A stretch of DNA of 50,054 bases, counting the filler, from Bipalium vagum (taxonomy: Eukaryota): NCBI GenBank assembly GCA_037834085.1. It is 2 parts of 2 records of this genome, joined end to end, with 100 filler letters (N's around TTAATTAATTAA, not from the genome) between each part and the next. Parts side by side here need not be neighbours in the genome. Positions count along the whole stretch, not along the records: positions 1 to 17,992 come from JBBMKC010044530.1; 1 more part is not named here. One strand, written 5' to 3'. The notes under the pieces were generated by a model. That model did not search any database. It had not been told where the DNA came from and saw only the letters and a program-made list of their open reading frames with translations. Of the stretch, positions 1 to 40,500 are shown one piece after another (the first letter of the stretch is position 1; each line of letters begins with the position of its first letter). Made by a program: the position numbers and the translations under genes.

Positions 1-180
1 ATTGATTTGTAATTTGATATCGATCTGAATATACGTATTAAACAAAAAATCGTTTTCTCAGTGAATTTTAATTAAAAAGCGAACACGTATAAAAGCAACC
101 TTCAACCGTTAAGACCTGAGAGATATTTAGGCTCCGAACTTTAACATCCTTTTTATCCATCAAACTCCAGGATCTTAACA
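1..180 (+). mobile_element. 3' end of an LTR (solo or 3' LTR), related to the LTR at ~10914-11650
   Basis: Shares colinear blocks with the reverse complement of 10914-11090: tttgtaattt, gttttctcagt, gcaaccttcaa..gttaagacct, gctcc, tatccatc, ggatcttaa(c/g)a. Ends in canonical ...TTAACA at 180 and is not followed by a PBS. Confidence 0.7.
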
Positions 181-429
181 TAGCAATTTTAGGTACAGAC
201 TACCTAAGTGCTTATATATAAAGGAAATGTTATTAATTAATATTTATGTTATGAAATAAATTTATATTTCATTTAGTGTCAGAAAAAATTTTTACTTAAA
301 AAATTTAAAATATTATATAAAGAAATCTTCGAAATGTAAATATTTATAAAGTATATTATTAGCAAGCAAAAAGTATAAATATCAACAAAATTCAAAAATA
401 TATAGTATTTTATCATTTATCACAAAAAT

Positions 430-1146
430 TGCAAGTATCAGAAAAAATTTTCCACCACTATAATTCTCTACATGCTGGGGTGAACGCCTGTTTCAGGATT
501 CACAAAGTTATATTTATGACAGACTGTTTTGTGGTTATATATTCCCGTTTTGGTTATACTTCCATATACTTTCGCTTCATCACTATGAATAATAACAACA
601 TTTTCGATTATTGGGATAATTGTTGACATTGTTTTTGTCAGCTCACATTGTTGCAAACCCCCGAGGCCGGTTTGGTTGATGTGTCTTCAATATAAAAACA
701 TCATACCAAGTCAACGATGTGATTTCATATTATGATTTAGTCTAGTTTCAAATACCAACACTATTACGTTGGGCCCTCCAAGTTTAATTTGATTTTACCA
801 ATTAAAAATTTTCTTAATCTGATATAAGCCGGTGCAGATATTTTACCTGCCTTCTCAGTTTGTGCAAAATTCTTATTTCCGGATCATAAAATAATTGCTT
901 TCACTTTTATTTTTAGATGAATCTTAAAATTTGACACCAATGACCCTGTACGAATACTAAGTGTTGTATTATCTTTGAAACATCTCCATTTGAGCCATCA
1001 GATGTGCTTTTATCTGGTAACCTATGAATAAAATGTTTGCATTTTAAGCATTTCACGGACTCCTTTAACAATCCATGTTTGATAAGCCATTGAATAAGTT
1101 CCAAAGAATTGAAATATGAGAGTACATCATTAAAATCATAATCCAT
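430..1146 (-). mobile_element. Degenerate Merlin (IS1016/ISXO2-like DDE) transposase remnant
   Basis: Frameshifted minus-strand pieces: WLIKHGLLKESVKCLKC..SDG (Zn ribbon), KLGGPNVIV, and IIPIIENVVIIHSDEAKVY..HKTVCHKYNFVNPETGVH, typical of DDE_Tnp_IS1595/Merlin. Confidence 0.8.
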
Positions 1147-2221
1147 ATTCTAAAAAAAGATTAATTAAAATACGAAATTTATATATCTTTTAAATATATA
1201 TCATGACGGAATGATTAGAGTTAGTAAAATTTTGTTTAAGTATTTTGGAGTGTCAGAAAAAGTTTTTAAAATTCATTATGTTCTTGCATTTTTTATGCGA
1301 CAGGAGCCAACGATAGCTCCTACACTATTAGGGTGTTATGAGAGTACCGAATCTGGCTCATCAAACAATCCTAAAACCCATTGTCTTTTTTAAAATGTGA
1401 TTTTTTCCTTTTTTTGTTTTTATTTTTAAATTAACATTTATCTGATTAACTATTAGCATTTGATTAAACTTTTAATGATATTTTACTTGATTGTTTTGAT
1501 TCTCATTTCTATTTTATTGATCCTGATGATTTCAGACATTTTCCATTGTAGATTGTGTTATTGTCTGATACGTTTGTATAATTGTTGTAGAAGATTAAAA
1601 TTTTATTGTAGTTGTTTGATTCAATTATTTTCAAACACGACCTAAGTGTTACGTATAGTTTCAGATTAATATAAAGCGCAACATTATCATTGTAATTTGT
1701 TATAGTAATATTATTTTCTGTTATTTTTACTGATGAGATTTTAAATTGATAAACTGTTCTTAAATGTTTGTTTTAAATGAGAATTTATATAAGTAATTAC
1801 ATTCACAAAAAGTTTGAAATCTTATAGTAAAATTATTATAAAATAAGTCATTATGAATATGAGGACGCTAATCAGACCTGGGGAATTTTTTAATTATTTT
1901 AAAATATTAAAAAAGTATGAGTGAAATTTCCAGGTCTGAGAAAATTTGTTTAAATCTTATTTGTTTTATCACTTAATAAATCTTTTCAAAAAAACACTTA
2001 TAATTCTGATTATAAACCGATTGATATTAACAATGAAAAAAACATTCTTAAAAAGTAAAAACGTTTTAATAACTTACATTCATCAAAATAGCATTCTTAC
2101 ACATTTCCGGTGATATTTTAGCTCCCTCTTCAAGCTCCATTTTCTTCGATTGCATGTGCCAGATCTTTTCAGTTCTTTATTTTTCTTATTTACCTTTGTC
2201 TTTATAATTTGTATACATATA

Positions 2222-4211: not shown

Positions 4212-7200
4212 TTAGGTAGTGTCAATCTGACAGTTTTGTTTTCTAGACATTCTTTTAAGACTTTTCTTTTGTAAAGACATTTTGAAACTTGAAACAGTAT
4301 ATCGTGACTTGTGGTAACTTAAGTTACAAAACATAAAAAACAGTTCTACAATTGTAATCAAAGACACTCCAATCCATAATCCTAATATACCTCCAAAATC
4401 ACTGAGTAAATTTCCTAACAGATAAGCTTCATATTCTCTAATAATTTCCTTTCGTGGAGACTCAAATTGTACTGTTAATAAAGAAAAGCAATTCCAAACT
4501 GATTTTGAAAATCGAATTCCTTCTTCGATACAGTTTTTAGCCTTTACTAGCGAGGCATGTTCAGTTATTGATGGTAGTTTTATGATTTCATTATAATGTT
4601 TCATAAATTTTTCATGAACAAATGATATCTCATTTATCATAGTATTTTCGAACCATGGCAATGAATAGGAATGTATTGAATATTGAACCTGTTCACATAA
4701 TCCAGGACAGAGATTAATAATATTTTCGTTAAATTCTTTATCTTGGTCTAATTGATTGAGACACTTCATGTTATTTATGATACTCTGAACAGTCGAGTTT
4801 GATTTCTTTTCGTTACAAAATCCCAATGGTTGTTTTCCATTTCTAATAGCTTCGGTAAATAAAGGTAGGTTTTGGTTAATGCAGTTACACGTTTTTATAC
4901 AATTCAATTGGGTGTGATATTGTCGACATAAAACAGCATTGTATTTATATGGAATTGAGTATGTTAATGAACCATCATATTCAAAATCCTTTTGTATGTA
5001 TAATACTGTATCTTTATCGACTAAGCAAGGTGCCCGTAGCTTATTAACAGAGTTACTGCCTAGTTGTTTTATTCTAAATATTGTTTGAGAACCGCTTTGA
5101 AAATTTTCAAAAGATTTTTCTGTCCCGGGAAAAACAAAAGCTTCATTAATGGTAACCTCTCCACCATAAAATGTAATTATCGACTTAAAATCAGAAACAA
5201 ATCGCTTAAAATCACTATCGACAAAAACTCCGACAACTAATTTATCAGGAACAGCTTTCTGTTCCGTTTCGTTATATTGAAATCGAAAACAGCGTTTATT
5301 TATGGGATGATCTATCTCAATAAAATCTTTATAAGAGCAATCTCTATTGTTGATTTCACAGAAAAATATCATTTCATAATTTCTACGATCAAAGGTAACA
5401 TTCATATATCTTTGGCTTCTGTAAAGACTGGTTTCAGCTTCATCCCAATATCTACCAATATTTGTGCTGCTATTGATATCTTCATTTAGCTCCATAAATA
5501 CATTTTTCCAAAATTCGACATTCTAAAACATGAATATTTAAAATTATTTAAGAGGATGCCTTCTAAATTATTATTATTCAGATTAATATCATTATCATGC
5601 TTATTAATATTAGGTTGTAAAAAAATCATGGTTTGATTATTTTTTGGTTTTGCTATACAATATCAACACAAATATATTTGAGAAATCTTTTGCTAGGTTA
5701 AAAGGTAAAGTAAATATTTTGTATTTTCATTTAAATTTAGCAGCTTTGAAATGAAGTCCCAAGTTTATGAAAACTACAATTTTGGCCACCTATTGCTGTT
5801 TTATTTTAATTTAAATCAGAAAGTTCCAATACGTATGGAACATATTTTCACCTGAACTACTTCAAAAATTATTACTAGAAATTAAAAAATGACAAATTCA
5901 ACCTTCAAGACACAGGAAATATGGGTAGGCCGTCCAATTCGATAATAAACAGTTGATTGCACTCTTGAAAAAGGACGGCTATTAAATATACAGAGATTTG
6001 TCTCATATGACTAGTAGCAATCCATTGACAGTCTTTTGCCACCTAAAATCAAAAACTGTGTGCTTGTTTTCCATAATGATTGTACGAAAAATATCAAAGA
6101 AATTCGTTAAAAAATTGCAGTTCAAAATTTTACCCGATAACAAAATATTTGAACCATAAGAAATAATTTCTTCATCAAACAATCACTGTAGATGAGAGAT
6201 AGTATTTGTTTACAAACTTGAAAAACAAGAGAGGTAATTAGATTCTATTTGGAAATCAACACCCAGATTTAAACAAGATGTGCATCCAAAGAAAATTATA
6301 ATTTCTGTTTAATGAAATTGGGCCGGCCTCATACATTGGGAAATGATCCAGTTAGACTAGACTATAGAAAAGCATCTATAATATAAATCAATTGTTTCGA
6401 GTTAAAGGGCAAGAGAAAAGACAGAATAAACGAGTCAAAATGATTCTTCTTCATCATATCGTGAAACCGTATACAAGAAATACCCTCAAACCACTCATCA
6501 AAGTTCTAGGAGACTCTTCAACACCTTCCGTATTTCCCAGACCTTGTGCTAACAGATTTCTATATTTTCTGCTCGCTTTCAAACCATAACCATTACTTTA
6601 GTGAAGAAAGATGACTATAAAAAGATATTGACCAATTTCTTTCTCAATAAATGTAGAGATTTCTGGAATAAAGATTGCAAAAAACTGGAAATATATGAGA
6701 AAATAATAATGAAAAGTGCATTATCAATTGATTTCATTATTTGTAAAAAAAATTTTTATTTCTTATAAATTTGATAATTAAATAATTATTCAAAACCATG
6801 AAAAATTGTTACAACCTAATATTATGAATATGATTATTTTATTATTATTATTTTTTTTTTTTTTTATTTTTATTATTATTATGAATTTTTTTAAATTAAA
6901 TTTTTATTTCATTACTAATTAACTTTTGGCATAGAAGTTTTAAAAAAAAATTTTAATTAAATTTTGATTTTTATAGAATTTTCAATGTTTTAAGTAATTT
7001 CTAAAAATTATTTTTCCTACAGGTATTTTCCTACATACCAACATGTATTGAAGAATATCTTTAATAAAAAAATTTTAATTAATAAAATTATAATAATATT
7101 GTTACAAATAAACTAACTTCAGTAATAAGTTCGTTGATATTAGAATTGTTAAATTTTTTCTGTGGAACTTTTTTATTTTTCTCAAATTTTTCAATATTTA

Positions 7201-7501
7201 TAAATTTGGTAGGGCAAATAGTCAATGCTGGAAAAGGATCGAAATTAACAGAAGATACTATATCTATTGTTGTCGGTAAACCTGCAAATCTCTGAATGAT
7301 TAAATAAAGATGGGCAACAAAACCTATAAAACATGTGCTTATACAAATAGACCAACTGATTTTATTGACCATATTTTTATGATTATATGTTTGAATTATC
7401 CCATGAAAAGAAGTTGTTCTTAAAAAATCCGAAATAGCCTTTTTCTCTTTCTCTTGAAAAATGTTGACATTTTTGAGGGTACGTTGAATTTTTTCGTTCA
7501 T
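4212..7501 (-). CDS. DEG/ENaC (ASIC/FaNaC superfamily) channel subunit, ~564 aa; complement(join(4212..5522,7118..7501))
   Basis: Exon 1 has the TTSFHGI (HG) motif, TM1 and PFPALTIC. Phase-0 intron GAA|gttagt...ttttag|AAT. Exon 2 has the Cys-rich thumb and LLSDFGGILGLWIGVSLITIVE (TM2 with GxS filter). An acceptor (cag) just before the ATG and a donor gtaaga near 7620 imply an upstream, probably UTR, exon. Confidence 0.92.
5610..6819 (+). mobile_element. Full-length but decayed mariner (1.2 kb) in the ENaC intron
   Basis: Imperfect TIRs ttaggttgtaaaaaaaatcatggtttg / caaaaccatgaaaaattgttacaacctaa with TA flanks. Residual motifs ITVDER, ILLHHIVKPY (HDNA-like), PYFPDLV (YSPDL-like). Confidence 0.85.
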
Positions 7502-7935
7502 TCTGAAAAAAGAAAACTAAATTCATGATCAAACAATTTTGTCATTAATTTTCTTCAAAAATTCAATATTAGACATGAAGTCATTTTAGTTATATAAAAA
7601 TATTTGTAGAATTATCTTACTTTTCAATTTATAAAATAGTGTTTTGATTTTAAAAAGTATATGAATTATTTCTTTTATGTTAACATTAAGTTTTTAAATA
7701 TATTTATAACAATAATAGGCTTAAGCGTGCAATGACAATATCCGCCCAATTGAAACATAATCTTTTCTACAATAATGATTTTCCACCAAATCTTAAGAAA
7801 TAAGTTTGCAATTTAAGGAGTATGATCGTAACTGTTAAACAGATTTATTTTATCCGGTAAACATATCAACATTTATTATTAATTACTTTTTTAACAACAT
7901 TTATACTGTATAAAATAAATATATTATATATTATA

Positions 7936-8017
7936 TTAGGTGTATTAGTTTGATTCCGGCTTTTACACAAATGAGTTAAAATTTGTGGTTCAATGAATAA
8001 ATTAAATTGGTACCATA
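7936..8017 (+). mobile_element. Mariner left end (TIR plus ~55 bp), same family as the copy at 21684
   Basis: ttaggtgtattagtttgattccggcttttacacaaatgagtt...aattggtaccat closely matches 21684-21765 (ttaggtgcattaatatgattcagacttttacaaaaatgagtt...aattggtatcat). Preceded by TA. Confidence 0.8.
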
Positions 8018-8644
8018 CGATTTACTATGGCTAACGTGGCTTGTGTGGTGAGGTTACTACTATTAATGAATTTTTCTGATGGTTCAAAGATCACTTCTTG
8101 TCCATTAGATAAATTTTTAGCCAACAGGCATATCTGTTCGTGTCGTGTGGGTATGATGGCTTGATATAGTACAACAGCTATGCGATCTTCGTTTCTTAGC
8201 GCATTCTTGCATCCTCGAGGGTGTACAAATTTTAATTGTTGGGTAGAGAAATCAAGGAATAAACCTGGGATTTTTGATAGGATATCCATGCCAATTATAC
8301 ACTCAAGTTCATTATTTTTACATTATTTTTAATGTATGATCTATGTCTATTAATTTGATTGATACATTCAATGAAACATCACATGCAGGGGTTATGAGAA
8401 GTGGTCTATGTCCAAAAGTATTTTCATGGTTGAGAACCCATTTGAAAGTATTTTTTATGATTTCGATTAATTCAAGTGCCACTGATGAGTTTCCTTTTAA
8501 GATTGCATTATGTAACGGGGTATCACCATACTTATCTGGGACTGTGAATAATGCTGGTATTTTTCGAGCCATTTCGTTAAATGTCTCTTCCCTGGAAAAG
8601 CCAAATGCAAAGTAATGTGCTATTTTAGAATTGTCGTAAAGCAT
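8002..8644 (-). pseudogene. Ankyrin-repeat coding segment inside the retroelement, followed by an unassigned ORF (8002-8289)
   Basis: DKYGDTPLHNAILKGNSSVALELI is a canonical ANK repeat; NTFGHRPLLI is a second, degenerate repeat. Intronless and on the same strand as gag. Confidence 0.8.
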
Positions 8645-9559
8645 TTGTTTTTAAATTCGAATTTGCTGTGGCGGGTATAGGTGCAACTGTCATTACAGGT
8701 TTTTCTATTCCTCGTATTATTTGACAGATAAAATATATACCAGAGAATCTCCCCAAATATATGTAATAACACTCTTTGCGGCATGAATATAATGATCTGC
8801 TCCGAATAATAGATTATAATCCATTTTACCTTGTTGGGCATTGTAAATTTTTGTAATCATCTCTATTATCAATCTCTTGTGCCCGAGGTAAGAGTATTAC
8901 TTTCCTGGCCTGGTATATATCTTCAGGGGAGTATATTCCTCCTTCATTAATGGATGGTAATGGTTTAAATTCGACCATATTTTGCATTTCTATTGCCTCT
9001 GTTGTTTAAACTTTTTCTATTGGCGGTTTCCTTTCTGGTAACGATATCGATTACCCGCCGATCTTATATAGAGGGTATATAATAGGACCACATATGGCTA
9101 TTTGAGATTATACGTTTACTTTTAGTATTATTCGGGTTAATGGGGATACAAATTGTAATAAAATAATAAATAAATAACATGTGAATCACTAGTACATTCT
9201 TTATATTTTGCTAATGGGACATTTAGTTTCTCACATTTGTATGTATCACTAATTTTACGATCAAAAACGCCATCCTGAATTAATAAGGGTGAGGTGAGTT
9301 TGGGGTTATTAATGACAAGGAGTAACCGATTTTTTAATATTTCAAGTCCTAAAACGTTAGCATTTCTTACGCCTATTGCTTTATCGGAAATGATGGTGAT
9401 ATGATTAGATGTTTCTTGTTCAGCTTCACCTAGTCGTTCTACTTTTGCGTATTCCTCCATCAACAGTGACCTTTCAACCTTTCAATGTGTGACATGCATG
9501 TCTCAATTGTGTCGTTATTTTCCTCATTGTCATTTACAATATTTATTTTAGGTGTTAAT

Positions 9560-10867
9560 GAGGGACAACTTCTCTGTAAATGTCCAAATTTTCGAGAAAT
9601 AAAACATTTAACTTTTTCCTCAACATTCACTTGTTAATGTTAGGATGAATTAAAATTTATGCCTTGTGGTGGATTACAATTTATACTTCTGCACATACCT
9701 TTTACATGTCATCTTTTTAAGCATTGTAAACATTGCAAATTTTGCGCTCTACATTCGTTTGCGTTATGGTTTAATCGTGCACTTTTGGTACATTGTTTAT
9801 TATTATTATTTCCATTATTATAGTCAAATTGTTTATTTCCATAATTATTATTATACTCAAATGGTTTATTCCCACTGTTATAATTATTTATATTTGGGTA
9901 CTGATTCATTGGGGCTCTCATTTGGTTACGTTGGTTACTTCCATCTAAAACATTATAAGGTTTAGTGGACTATTCGTTAAATCGGACTCTTTTGTTTATC
10001 AGACATTCTCTGGCTCCATGACCCATTTCATTACACTTATAACATTGAATTTGATTATTATTATTTACTTTAATTGGTGATTTTGGCCTTAACCCGAGGG
10101 ACTGCGGACTCTTATTTATTATACTTACTGTTTTCATTTCAACAGCAATTTCGGCTAATTTTGCCTTCTGAATTTTTTGGTCAAACGCTTCATGTCTATA
10201 TAGCAGTATAGCTGCTTTAATTTCATATCGTAATCCTGACCATCATTGGTCTTTTACTATTACTTTTGTATTTTCGTCCCACTTATCTTGTAAACCGAAA
10301 GCTCTCTGGGCTAAGGTCCTTAAATTATGTGTATATTCTGATACTGTTTCATTCATTTTTTGGTTTAAGCTATAAAATTACTGCCTGAATAACTGATGCC
10401 CAAGTATCATCTTTTCCTTTGGCTACTAAATTTAAATATGTGTCTCTTGCTGCATCTTTTAAGTAAATGTGGAGTTGGTTCATCATTACTTTTTCATTAA
10501 AACCATATGCGCGCATTATTATATAATAATTTGATAAGAAATCGGGTAATTCGGCCGGGTTTCCAGTATAGGTATTCATTTTAATATAACCAGTATACGT
10601 GTTACCATTGTCATCGTGCTCACTTTCAGTCATTTTAGTTAATTTATTTTTATTAATATTTTCAGTAAAACAAGGACGAGTTTGGGAACAAGTTATTATA
10701 GGTTTTTCAACTATTAAACTTTGTTTTTTAACCTTTTTTACTTTAACTTTTTCGATTTGACTGTTAGATTGGGATTCAGAATTAATGGTTGTTACGTTTG
10801 GAAAATTATTATTATCTTCAGAATCGAAATTATCATTATCAATATCAAGATTATTATTATTAGCCGT
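9560..10867 (-). pseudogene. Decayed gag of an LTR retrotransposon with four CCHC-type zinc knuckles
   Basis: The frame is open from an ACG at 10865-10867 (probable mutated ATG) through ATG 10633. Retrotrans_gag-like motifs YTGNPAELPDFL, LKDAARDTY, ETVSEYTHNLRTLAQRAF. Knuckles: CYKCNEMGHGAREC (10003-10044), CTKSARLNHNANEC, CLQCLKR*HVKGMC, CFISRKFGHLQRSC. Contains stops and frameshifts. Confidence 0.88.
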
Positions 10868-10893
10868 TTTATTTTAAAAGGCTCCGAACGTTT

Positions 10894-10911
10894 ATCACGG
10901 CGGGATCACCA
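10894..10911 (-). promoter_or_regulatory. Primer-binding site complementary to tRNA-Trp
   Basis: Minus strand reads TGGTGATCCCGCCGTGAT, 16/18 identical to the tRNA-Trp PBS TGGTGACCCCGACGTGAT. Lies 2 nt from the LTR end and just upstream of gag. Confidence 0.85.
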
Positions 10912-10913
10912 AA

Positions 10914-11650
10914 TCTTAAGATCCTAAAAGATGGATAGATTTTAAAGAGTGGAGCTTATTGTGTTTAGGTCTTAACTTTGAAGGTTGCTGGATTACATGT
11001 TTGTTATTATAATTTAAAGTGACTGAGAAAACAATTTGATTTTTAAAACTTTTATTTGTATTAAAATAAAGTATTAAATTACAAAAGAGTGATATCGTCC
11101 CTGATTGATTAAATAAGTTATTAATTATAATTATTATTATGAAAAATCCTCTCGCTCTTAGGCTCAGAGGTCCTCGATAAAGAAGAACAATTTATCTCAC
11201 CGCCGTACTTAGCGTGTGAAATAACAAAAAAAGAGAAAAAAAGTAAAAGGGACAGAAAATGAAAAAATTATATAATCCTGATATATATAAACCTGAGTAC
11301 TTATTTATTTAATAATAACAAACTGTGTCTTGTCTAACAAGACACGCCTGCTTTAATTAATATAAATAAATAATAATAAATATCAAAAATCAAGTATTAT
11401 AATAATCAAGTTTCAATAGATTTTATAGATCGATTACTAGTCTTGAATACTCTTGGTTTCAAGCCGGTTAAAGTGATTTTAGTGAATTTTTGAAAATAAG
11501 TAATACTTTATTAAACCAATGTAATAAGTAAAAGATATAAAGTTACAAATTTTACTTTAGTAATTAAGGTTAGCATATAAAGGTCTCTGTTTGGTTGTTT
11601 TTCTTTTTCTTTTTCTCTCGTGAAGAACTGTTATAGTATTGTAAATAGTT
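10914..11650 (-). mobile_element. 5' LTR of the ankyrin-bearing retroelement (outer boundary uncertain, ~11547 or ~11652)
   Basis: Abuts the PBS and ends ...GGATCTTAAGA (the sister LTR ends ...GGATCTTAACA). Homologous to 1-180. Internal hairpin gtgtcttg-tctaa-caagacac at ~11325-11345. Confidence 0.65.
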
Positions 11651-11684
11651 ACTTAGAAGGTGCAAACTGATAAGTCTAATTTAT

Positions 11685-11745
11685 TAAATATTACTCCTTC
11701 GGATTTCCATTTGTTCCGCTTGATACAATACGCGCTTTCAATAAA
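11685..11745 (+). mobile_element. Mariner transposase C-terminal fragment
   Basis: NITPSDFHLFRLIQYAL matches the (Y)SPDLAPSDFHLF motif. The DNA ctccttcggatttccatttgttc is also present at ~22318-22340. Confidence 0.75.
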
Positions 11746-26400: not shown

Positions 26401-26988
26401 AGATTAGAGAAATGCATGCATTTAACACATTTGGATATGGATTTTAGTTAACTTATATAGAATCTATCAATTGACTCTTTTTATTTGTCATTAATGTGCT
26501 AAAATAGTTTGGATATAAGAACGAAATGTTTACACTAATTCTGCTGTAGTTTAGAATGTGATTCTTTTATCTATAGCCTTCAAATTTTCATTCATGTCTA
26601 CATCGGACTAATTTTCTAAGTCAAAGTTACCAGAAGTGAATTCCGCAACCTAACGACTAATGGCGCTTTGATTAGACACAAAATCTTACATATTCCGACT
26701 GTTCGGACTGTGGTGGATCTTCTACGGAACTCATTTTCTATAAAAATGAGAATTTTTGATTTTCCCATTATCTGAATACCATAACTTACAAAATATTTTT
26801 AAAAATTGTGCGTCTTTAACAAATTATTAAAACAAGAATGATTAGTTTACAATAAAAATTCACAGAGATAATCAAGTTAAAAATGACCAGATAAAATTAT
26901 GCTTTTCATACATTACCACCGCATACGTATATTCTTTTCAATTGTTCATATATATGTTTAGTTTTTATTTTTATAATAATTTTGATCA

Positions 26989-28380
26989 ATGTTATCTTTT
27001 ATTTCAATTAATTATATTTTACTTCCCACCTATATAGTATCAAGATCAATGCAACATGTCATGTGTGTTTCGTGGACGTACTTAGACACAATACTTTGCA
27101 ATGTAATAATATTACATCTTTTGGGCTGCAGTCTCGATTCCTATCTACGCCTGCGACATCCATCTCGATACGTCGACTCAACAAAACAGCTTTTTACCTG
27201 CCTTAAATTGTCGGCTCCCTGGACATTAAGTTTTGTTCAATCAACAGCTTTCATGGCAATCGCTCAGATTTCTGAGTCCACAATACACGATGGCGTTTGT
27301 TCTATTTCGGATCCGAATTTTCTTATTTTACGCTCTGTTATGTGTTTTGGATTTCCCATCTCAATTAGTTCAGTATTGGTTTTTCTTTCGGCCAAAAGTC
27401 TTTCGAAATTTAACAGCAAAAGGCATATAAACTATATAACGAAGAAATCGAAAGAGGAGGCAACACCCAACGAGGCAGAATCGTTTCAATTACTTTCCAC
27501 AAATCCAAACATTATTAACCGAGATGAAACACAAGAGACCATTGTAAGAACAACCGATGAACAGGTTTATTTGCCATCTTCGTCTACATTTGACTGCAAC
27601 AATTCATTGGAATTTTATCAGCACCAGTGTCCCCAACATGGAATATTGGCAATTCCTATAGACAGATCAGTACTTGCTTATCCGGTTTCTCTCAGCTCAC
27701 CAAAATATGATCCCCTGTTGATAAGTAATAATTCTCGTGATTTATTATATCAGTGTTGTTCAACACAAACCATAGGGAAAGATCCACTGAACATTTCTGA
27801 AAGTTGCTACCCTCCTAATTTCATTTGTTCCACTGCAAGCCAGCAGCACTGTCCTGACGTTGTACCGACAATTCAGTCATCCGCCGACGTATCGATGCAA
27901 AACTGTTCGCCAAACGATTCTGAATTGAGAAACTCAAACTTACACCAGTCTCGATCGTTAGGAGACATATTAGATACTCATTCGCGATATTGCACGTTTC
28001 CTGCTAGTCAATCGTTAGATTTGCAACGAATCTCCGAAAATGCCGTTATTCCAGAAATGTATTCCATATCATGTAGAATGAATGATAAGCCGATACCGGC
28101 CGCTAAAAGACCACTAAATCGCATAAAATCCCACGAACGTACAACAATAGCCATCAACCTATCGCTCTGTATCATTTCAATTCTGTTTTGGGGTCCCTTC
28201 ATAATTGGCTCTCTGATCCAAGGGGTCTGTAAGCCGCCGCTCTGTATTTTGCCCATTTCCAATCCTCGACTAAATGAATTTAAGTGGCTCTCATATATCT
28301 TGTGTATCATTTATCCTTTAGTCATACTCATCATTGATGCTGATATTCGCGGTGTAATCAAATCTTCCTTGAATTGTTAA
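26989..28380 (+). CDS. Class A GPCR, aminergic-like but atypical; large terminal exon covering TM3-TM7 (probable acceptor at 27037; TM1-2 exons not located)
   Basis: CVSWTYLDTILCNVIILHLLGCSLDSYLRLRHP (TM3 with D3.32), TM4 PW, ECL2 Cys, TM5 FGFP, ~240-aa ICL3, HERTT, TM6 FWGPF, TM7 WLSY..IYP. Confidence 0.85.
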   Translation: MLSFISINYILLPTYIVSRSMQHVMCVSWTYLDTILCNVIILHLLGCSLDSYLRLRHPSRYVDSTKQLFTCLKLSAPWTLSFVQSTAFMAIAQISESTIHDGVCSISDPNFLILRSVMCFGFPISISSVLVFLSAKSLSKFNSKRHINYITKKSKEEATPNEAESFQLLSTNPNIINRDETQETIVRTTDEQVYLPSSSTFDCNNSLEFYQHQCPQHGILAIPIDRSVLAYPVSLSSPKYDPLLISNNSRDLLYQCCSTQTIGKDPLNISESCYPPNFICSTASQQHCPDVVPTIQSSADVSMQNCSPNDSELRNSNLHQSRSLGDILDTHSRYCTFPASQSLDLQRISENAVIPEMYSISCRMNDKPIPAAKRPLNRIKSHERTTIAINLSLCIISILFWGPFIIGSLIQGVCKPPLCILPISNPRLNEFKWLSYILCIIYPLVILIIDADIRGVIKSSLNC

Positions 28381-28914: not shown

Positions 28915-29066
28915 NNNNNNNNNNNNNNNNNNNNNNNNNNNNNNNNNNNNNNNNNNNNNNNNNNNNNNNNNNNNNNNNNNNNNNNNNNNNNNNNNNNNNN
29001 NNNNNNNNNNNNNNNNNNNNNNNNNNNNNNNNNNNNNNNNNNNNNNNNNNNNNNNNNNNNNNNNNA
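28915..29066. other. Assembly gap
   Basis: Run of N. Confidence 0.99.
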
Positions 29067-35749: not shown

Positions 35750-36440
35750 TTGAACGAATTATTTGCAATCGAAAACGCTCAGTAGTTAATTGGTTTCATC
35801 AGATTTAGAGATTTATGAATTGCTGAAAAGGATTATGATTATGATTGCATGTCGCGTACACAAGTTTATGCATGGTTTACACGATTTAAAAATGGTCGTA
35901 ATAAGTTAAATGACGATGGAAAGTCTGGACGTCCGGATGCTGAAAATCGTTCGCATTTGGTGGTAAAAGTACGTGAAATCATTTCTTCTGATGGTAAAAT
36001 GACTGTGAGAATGTTAGCAGAAGAATTAAATACAATTTACCATGTGAACAATTTTAACTAAAGATTTTGGTAAAAGAAAGATTTGTGCCAAGTTTGTTTC
36101 TCATGCATAAAATGAAGACCAAAAATCAACTCGTGTTGCATATTGTAAAGATCTCCTCAACATTGTTGAAAACAATCTAGATTATATTGACTCAATTATG
36201 ACTGGTGATGAGACGTGGTGTTTCAAATATGATCCACAAATGAAGCGTCAAAGTAGTGAAACCCAAAAAATTTCGTTTTCAAAAATCAAGAATTAAGACA
36301 ATGCTTATTACTTTTAATGATTCAAAGGTATAGCCCATAAGAAAATTGTTCTAAAATGTCAAACTGTTAATGGGGTATGTTATTTAAATGTTTTACATCG
36401 CTTGTGTTCAAGAATTGTTCAAGTTAGGCCGGAATACAAA
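35750..36440 (+). mobile_element. Decayed mariner transposase
   Basis: MSRTQVYAWFTRFKNGR..SGRP, KICAKFVSH (WVPH-like), IMTGDETWCFKYDP. Confidence 0.9.
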
Positions 36441-40064: not shown

Positions 40065-40500
40065 TGAAGGATTCCCTTCGTCGATCAAATGAACCACATA
40101 GAATTCTACCACCAAGACAATGCACCAATCCATACTGAAAAATTTACAAGAGATTGGTTCGATGATCATGGCTTACCTCTTCTGCTGTGGCCAACAACCA
40201 GTCCCAATGCTAACCCCATCGAAAATGGGTGGGGGCGCATGAAACACCAGCTTAATCATATGCTTACTACTACTAATACTTACTACTAAAACTACATCTG
40301 TTTAGCAAGTGTCAGGATTTGTGAACCACTATCATGAAAGAAGAGAATTACCGGTACAGCCATGTAGGTTCTATGGAGGCTTTCCGCAATAATGAATGAG
40401 CTGTAGGATATACCAAATATTAACAATATATTGTTTTCTGTATATAAATATAATATACATATATTATGAATGTTTAAATTTTTTACTGGACAATTTAATG
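40065..40500 (+). mobile_element. Tc1-like transposase C-terminal remnant
   Basis: FYHQDNAPIH..WPTTSPNANPIENGW, i.e. the D..E part of DD34E. Confidence 0.88.

Follow-up and report, generated by a model that had tools for sequence, protein, structure and literature searches.

The window analysed here is a stretch of 50,054 nucleotides from Bipalium vagum (assembly GCA_037834085.1), and the element that concerns us lies between its positions 8018 and 11636. This piece of 3.6 kb, equivalent to 954 codons, has all its parts contiguous and on the minus strand. It carries the remains of a long terminal repeat (LTR) retroelement of the gypsy type together with an ankyrin (ANK) module, as a first-pass annotation of the same DNA had proposed and as the evidence now supports. 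We think it likely that this is a dead, internally deleted and 3'-truncated relic of a Burro-like element, nested within a mariner transposon. The order of its parts is probably gag, env, ANK, then a probable protease (PR) and a probable dUTPase-like linker. Read along the minus strand, with the two mariner pieces at its borders, the locus comprises the following features.

11637..11739, plus strand: 3' part of a mariner transposase gene, making up the mariner's right-hand half; over 116 nt it has 72% identity with 22248-22363.
10914..11636, minus strand: 5' LTR, of which at most about 720 nt are left; 3' end defined, 5' end undefined and possibly truncated.
10894..10911, minus strand: primer-binding site (PBS), a single match in the window.
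10120..10873, minus strand: gag N-terminus and capsid domain, with a frame change near 10378 and one stop in the second piece.
9565..10044, minus strand: nucleocapsid with four CCHC-type knuckles and Asn-rich spacers, from a motif search and Pfam zf-CCHC (E = 1e-4).
9385..9564, minus strand: post-knuckle gag tail, ending at a presumed gag/env deletion junction near 9385.
9153..9384, minus strand: probable upstream continuation of env, containing VLGLEIL, placed from its position and from motifs of the chuvirus glycoprotein type.
8874..9152, minus strand: env fragment, a viral fusion glycoprotein of the Monjiviricetes type (Pfam PF24664), with three stops.
8651..8873, minus strand: decayed linker with several frame changes, probably the C-terminal and transmembrane region of env.
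8321..8650, minus strand: ankyrin segment, with one full repeat (GDTPLH, from 8527) and, 38 residues on, the start of another (GHRPL, from 8413).
8200..8322, minus strand: probable C-terminal half of a retropepsin, with a motif at 8298-8248; the catalytic half is absent and the frame changes at about 8322.
8018..8199, minus strand: probable dUTPase-like linker, of the kind that precedes reverse transcriptase (RT), cut at the mariner junction; suggested by a weak PDB match and by a position as in Burro.
7932..8017, plus strand: mariner left end (TA and terminal region); 86% identical over 86 nt to 21680-21764.

The GC content is mostly 20-30% across the window, as in AT-rich animal DNA. The three strongest AT skews out of 50 intervals all fall at 8001-11000, and GC stays even, at about 32%, through the env, ANK and PR pieces. 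This is consistent with what is expected of one unit.

At the head of the element, the LTR had already been placed on the minus strand, and its 3' end at 10914 is backed by a second LTR end: its last 170 nt or so (11085-10913) are 69-72% identical to positions 6-181 on the plus strand. On the other side it does not extend beyond the mariner junction at 11636. The PBS starts at 10911, 2 nt past the LTR end, and is met a single time in the window where 0.002 matches were expected, the pattern having been picked post hoc. The site announced in the first-pass annotation is therefore retained; it is presumably of the tRNA-Trp type. No tRNA gene was found in the window. Neither a 3' LTR in the same orientation, nor a two-LTR structure, nor a target-site duplication was found; the copy stops at the mariner junction. 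Two further observations belong to this subject. The stretch at 6-181 (+) is the 3' end of a related LTR, with a TTAACA terminus and no PBS behind it, either a solo LTR or a 3' LTR cut by the window edge. Within the LTR region, 11298-11372 forms an imperfect 75-nt hairpin with no Rfam match, and a scan of 7000-13000 against Rfam returned no match at all.

Behind the PBS, the decayed gag with its four knuckles, as first described, is recovered by independent means. A hidden Markov model built from three relatives matches it at 10861-10379 (iE 1.7e-18) and, after the frame change, at 10395-10120 (iE 5e-23); the window's own capsid piece has no Pfam match. The C-terminal half of the capsid is 30-42% identical to proteins P0003, P0031, P0006, P0008 and P0025 (36 of 86 positions for P0008, 32 of 86 for P0003), and the best gag identities are about 40%. 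The knuckles lie at 10044-10003 (intact), 9792-9751, 9732-9691 (with an internal stop) and 9606-9565, the remaining two having Cys replaced by Ser. They are all the motifs of this kind present in the six frames of the window. When the gag region was shuffled, one knuckle arose in 12 cases out of 2000 and two in none of 2000. Knuckles 2-4 are colinear with those of P0003 and P0031. Further on, 9481-9371 resembles the post-knuckle stretch of P0006, with a score reached by 3 of 3000 shuffles; for the corresponding stretch of P0003 the score was reached by 694 of 3000, which is not significant (in both cases the ranges were set by eye). Decay is heavy: five stops in 305 gag codons, and at least five frame changes.

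The first-pass annotation had left some 200 codons unassigned in the middle of the element. Positions 9152-8874, translated with X at the three stops, match Pfam PF24664 (Monjiviricetes_fusion) with E = 4.8e-9 and 35.2 bits for a cut-off of 27, over profile positions 410-497 of 653; Monjiviricetes is the class that contains Mononegavirales. The other five frames over 8600-9500 (two minus, three plus) gave no family match. Just upstream, 9153-9384 probably continues env, as its position suggests together with motifs that we take to be of the chuvirus glycoprotein type. Pfam, NCBIfam and the ESM Atlas provided no support for this segment, the Atlas being empty for 9140-9481, and NCBIfam had no match for four pieces of the window that were submitted. 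It is here that VLGLEIL lies, a motif previously read as protease-like. That reading has to be given up: no D[TS]G motif occurs anywhere from 8002 to 9500, and the stored proteases show no similarity to the sequence. Downstream of the fragment, 8651-8873 has moderately hydrophobic stretches (KD19 at most 1.5) and no family match; it would be the region that anchored the glycoprotein. At most about 78 codons are left for the 409 profile positions upstream of the match, so that at least about 330 env positions would be missing.

The ankyrin segment follows. Two repeats had been claimed in it, one of which is clear, with E-values of 0.002-0.04 for the Pfam Ank families, all below curated cut-offs, and with 206 PDB sequences at E<=1, the best at 2e-9; of the other, the start alone (GHRPL) is present. 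The 3' end of the segment may already be protease-derived. NF-kB p100 is among the natural PDB matches (E = 3e-6), with MIB1 ranking higher, and likeness to IkB is only a lead. A single-sequence AlphaFold model of 8321-8650 (pLDDT 43.6) was too poor to use.

The last open reading frame (ORF), also left unassigned at first, is probably derived from pol: the sequence of 8002-8322 probably represents the C-terminal half of a protease followed by a dUTPase-like linker. The pattern hhG.D.L...hDF at 8298-8248 is unique in the window and was met in none of 3000 shuffles, the pattern being chosen post hoc; presumably it is that of the C-terminal half of retropepsins. For 8005-8322 the ESM Atlas led to an aspartyl-protease cluster (score 0.88, rank 26), and a weak PDB match to dUTPase over residues 51-104 (E = 0.77) provides a lead for the linker. 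A PDB match of the same 8005-8322 to TAL effectors (E = 0.004) was rejected, as it adds up weak matches to repeats, and a single-sequence AlphaFold model, with a pLDDT of 38.5, was unusable. If the last ORF is PR-derived, as is probable, the protease comes after ANK, which also argues that VLGLEIL is not part of it. Env and the probable protease being both internally truncated, the single native frame of about 950 codons that had been suggested is not supported.

The rest of pol is missing. As noted from the start, no RT, RNase H or integrase is visible, here among 66 of the 68 ORFs of at least 70 amino acids, the other two, which contain N, being left out. A tBLASTn search with two stored pol proteins gave as its sole weak match 9603-9493 (E = 0.02), which falls over the fourth knuckle and was discarded. 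This absence had been read as a feature of the element's design. The mariner halves suggest rather that the element lost sequence once it had inserted: they flank the piece exactly on either side, and 8018-11636 occupies the place of 483 nt of the reference mariner present elsewhere in the window (Pfam Transposase_1, E = 7e-20). The simplest history would be an antisense insertion into the mariner, followed by a deletion in which part of the mariner was lost along with the 3' LTR and what remained of pol; the nesting, with its missing 483 nt, would thus account for the loss. Tc1/mariner remnants, all on the plus strand, are found at 21680-22400, 35819-36061 and 40068-40289 (Transposase_1 E = 7e-20; helix-turn-helix domains; DDE_3 E = 1e-10).

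Which elements are closest to this one can be asked of its gag. A full HMMER search with the frame 10377-9463, at E<=0.001, returned 49 proteins, and the nearest of them are gypsy-type or Burro-like, P0006 having a Pfam Retrotrans_gag domain (E = 5e-6). A tree of the capsid C-terminal half could be built with the window and 22 of the 49 matches, the others lacking the region or scoring too low; in it the window joins nine matches, including P0003, P0006 and P0008 (support 87/86, not starred). Five of the gag relatives, P0003, P0031, P0006, P0008 and P0025, extend for hundreds of residues past the knuckles, into domains absent from the present copy. In P0025 gag is accompanied by a region that resembles ubiquitin (Pfam E = 0.005), and the C-terminus resembles Bcl-2 (TIGR00865, E = 0.013), both matches being below cut-off. 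A helical and ubiquitin-like extension is common to P0025 and to the four-knuckle P0031 and P0003: in the comparisons of P0031 with P0025 and of P0003 with P0031, none of 3000 shuffles reached the score (ranges set by eye), and by BLASTP the shared extension was not significant. The gag relatives thus look like carriers of Burro-type extras, and P0025, P0031 and P0003 have the look of additional Burro-type elements from public contigs. Among prokaryotic genome contigs, a scan that used an alignment of three gag sequences met the pattern 109 times, and no match was confirmed.

Taken together, these pieces suggest how the relic may have come about. In an intact ancestor, transcription would start from the LTR, and reverse transcription would be primed by a host tRNA at the PBS. 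The ancestral polyprotein, a single long chain, would run through Gag, accessory domains, Env, ANK, PR, a dUTPase-like domain, RT, RNase H and integrase, and would be cut up by its own protease. By analogy, ANK would have been a protein-binding accessory module acting on a host pathway. The present copy would have inserted antisense into a mariner transposon. Internal deletions would have removed the region from the gag tail to the middle of env, with the 330 or more env positions already counted and any accessory domains, as well as the catalytic half of the protease. A further deletion would account for the absence of the 483 nt of mariner, of the 3' LTR and of the remaining pol.

Several observations weigh against a Burro-like origin. 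Likeness to Burro rests on published descriptions and not on direct sequence alignment, and the text of PMC6431247 gives no place for the ankyrin repeats within the polyprotein. The LTR remnant, at most 720 nt, compares poorly with the LTRs of several kb that the same text implies. For each of the 49 gag matches up to five families are listed; ankyrin is not among these for any of them, and no match aligns with 8002-9360. In the capsid tree P0025, the match with the clearest Burro-type domains, stays outside the clade of the window, a clade with support of only 87/86. The PR/dUTPase-like piece showed no significant similarity to P0027, P0023 or P0045, whether by BLASTP, by local or anchored global alignment, or by hhalign; against P0027 its score was reached by 1072 of 3000 shuffles. 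Word-index searches among proteins of up to 2000 amino acids gave no relative for the env frame (103 candidates), for the PR/dUTPase-like piece (127 candidates) or for the ANK ORF (42 candidates). These searches are weak evidence, full Burro polyproteins being longer than the range they cover. The stored sequences of the five gag relatives, for their part, stop short of env, ANK and PR.

One may ask whether the element was already short when it was mobile, a Burro-like element having given rise to a compact, non-autonomous form. In that case the deletions at gag/env and at ANK/PR would predate its amplification, the short form would have spread by means of the enzymes of autonomous copies, and the mariner-side deletion alone would be specific to this copy. 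The ORF 9481-9140, which stays open for 114 codons over the presumed gag/env junction, speaks for this scenario, the junction being in frame, as would happen by chance in one case out of three; so do the short LTR remnant and a gag that begins right behind the PBS. Yet neither an env that has lost the greater part of its N-terminal half nor a protease deprived of its catalytic motif has an evident use, no second internal copy exists in the 50 kb, and decay is as heavy as counted above, so that we hold this scenario to be unlikely. A more elaborate picture along the same lines would be that of a compact Burro-related family with short LTRs, a four-knuckle Gag and an IkB-like ANK set between a Monjiviricetes-type fusion anchor and the protease. 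It would have spread as a short or non-autonomous form, its ANK acting, by analogy, as a decoy of NF-kB innate immunity that would parallel the ANK of the planarian nidovirus PSCNV. This we regard as quite unlikely.

Two other explanations would do away with Burro descent. In one, the element belongs to an independent gypsy lineage outside the Burro clade and perhaps of a host other than a planarian, which made its own acquisition of a Monjiviricetes-type glycoprotein and of ankyrin, much as the element Anakin did for its glycoprotein. The modest gag identities leave room for it, as does a likeness to Burro that is one of description, and chuvirus-type glycoproteins have indeed been captured by other LTR elements (PMC7642597). 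It would nevertheless need convergence on four Burro traits (a multi-knuckle gag, an env between gag and pol, ANK, and a dUTPase-like domain after PR), while close gag relatives bear the ubiquitin-like extension. The window also exceeds 70% A+T, as planarian genomes do (PMC11410931), which would suit a planarian host, and we find such a lineage very unlikely. In the other, ANK derives from a host gene or a processed pseudogene, or unrelated insertions happen to lie together at the locus: a gag relic, a solo glycoprotein as an endogenous viral element, and a host ANK exon. The ANK scores do lie below the Pfam cut-offs, and the searches run found no retroelement protein with this ANK. Against this, the pieces are on one strand, contiguous and even in composition, and they follow the order that a Burro-like element would have; ANK stands between the env fragment and the protease-like motif, and the whole block sits inside one mariner. 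We give this last explanation hardly any credence, and keep as likely the nested, deleted relic of a Burro-like element.

The surroundings of the locus can be described briefly. On the minus strand, 4212-7516 is a channel gene of the ENaC/ASC family (Pfam ASC, E = 5e-27 and 1e-14; best PDB match FaNaC, E = 5e-9), which lies on the strand of the LTR and begins some 400 nt beyond the mariner end, on its downstream side. At 2217-2492 lies an element of 276 nt resembling miniature inverted-repeat transposable elements, with perfect 32-nt terminal inverted repeats, and at 468-1149 (-) are two short ORFs with no Pfam match at E<=0.01, which we take to be ISXO2/Merlin-type transposase fragments. The plus strand has exons of an FHA-domain gene at 15010-16300 (Pfam FHA, E = 0.026), presumably similar to MCRS1/MSP58, and at 26986-28380 a rhodopsin-family G-protein-coupled receptor, in one ORF of 464 codons with a long intracellular loop (7tm_1, E = 1e-10). 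Runs of N, at 17993-18092 and 28915-29065, are far from the retroelement.

When set beside known systems, the element has the features of Ty3/gypsy (Metaviridae-type) retroelements at its 5' side: an LTR followed by a PBS, then a Retrotrans_gag-type capsid with a CCHC nucleocapsid. Of the usual pol order, PR-RT-RNase H-integrase, what remains is the probable C-terminal half of PR and the linker. Among such elements the pointer to the planarian Burro made at first reading was apt. Section 7 of PMC6431247, the one source that we could confirm to describe ankyrin in an LTR element, credits Jurka (2007) with the report of ankyrin repeats in GYPSM1/Burro1, and Grohme (2018) with the same for Burro-2, -3 and -4. 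According to that text, Burro gag has two or three knuckles (three in S. mediterranea, two in D. tigrina), its env sits in frame between gag and pol (more closely, between BCL2 and PR) and matches mononegavirus fusion glycoproteins, a dUTPase-like domain sits between PR and RT, and ubiquitin/SUMO-like and BCL2-like domains are present (PMC6431247). The same source mentions decaying Burro fragments with stops and frameshifts in Dugesia japonica. The likeness is in the Retrotrans_gag-type capsid with several CCHC knuckles (four here), in a fusion-glycoprotein env between gag and PR (here the PF24664 fragment) and in the ankyrin repeats of the polyprotein. A dUTPase-like domain after PR may be a further point in common, its possible counterpart here being the weak PDB match.

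The differences are also clear. GYPSM1/Burro elements exceed 30 kb, with an ORF of about 4,900-5,100 amino acids, where the present piece has its 3.6 kb and 954 codons; no MATH, BIR, BCL2-like, SUMO/ubiquitin-like or Smc region was found in 8002-10873, and this copy has no RT, RNase H or integrase. Because the giant size, the long LTRs and the other accessory domains were not found, and because the comparison is one of description, we term the element Burro-like and do not file it as Burro, its descent from a Burro-type element being nonetheless probable.

Anakin, a BEL/Pao element of mosquitoes and one of the LTR elements with a captured chuvirus-type glycoprotein (PMC7642597), resembles the present element as an LTR retroelement with a glycoprotein of the Monjiviricetes class. 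It probably differs by its superfamily; the gag studied here is nearest to gypsy-type Retrotrans_gag proteins. The word ankyrin is absent from the main text of PMC7642597, and a motif search in its supplement returned no glycoprotein sequences. PSCNV and the viral ankyrins that mimic IkB offer a comparison for ANK itself: there too a short ankyrin array is found in a virus-like polyprotein, near membrane-protein domains (PMC6211748). PSCNV is an RNA virus and not a retroelement, and it is by description, not by sequence, that its ankyrins are likened to the present ones.

What does this add to our knowledge of these elements? Ankyrin in giant planarian gypsy elements has been on record since 2007 (PMC6431247) and the copy described here is dead, so that its presence in this copy matters little in itself. 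Two small points are added: the assignment of the env remnant to a specific family, PF24664, and the local order of env, ANK and probable PR, which would place ANK on the cytoplasmic side, after the env anchor. The BIR/RING region of Burro1 is reported to shield stem cells from apoptosis (Lee et al. 2026, as cited in PMC13465017), and an ANK with a host target would fit this theme of functional accessory domains.

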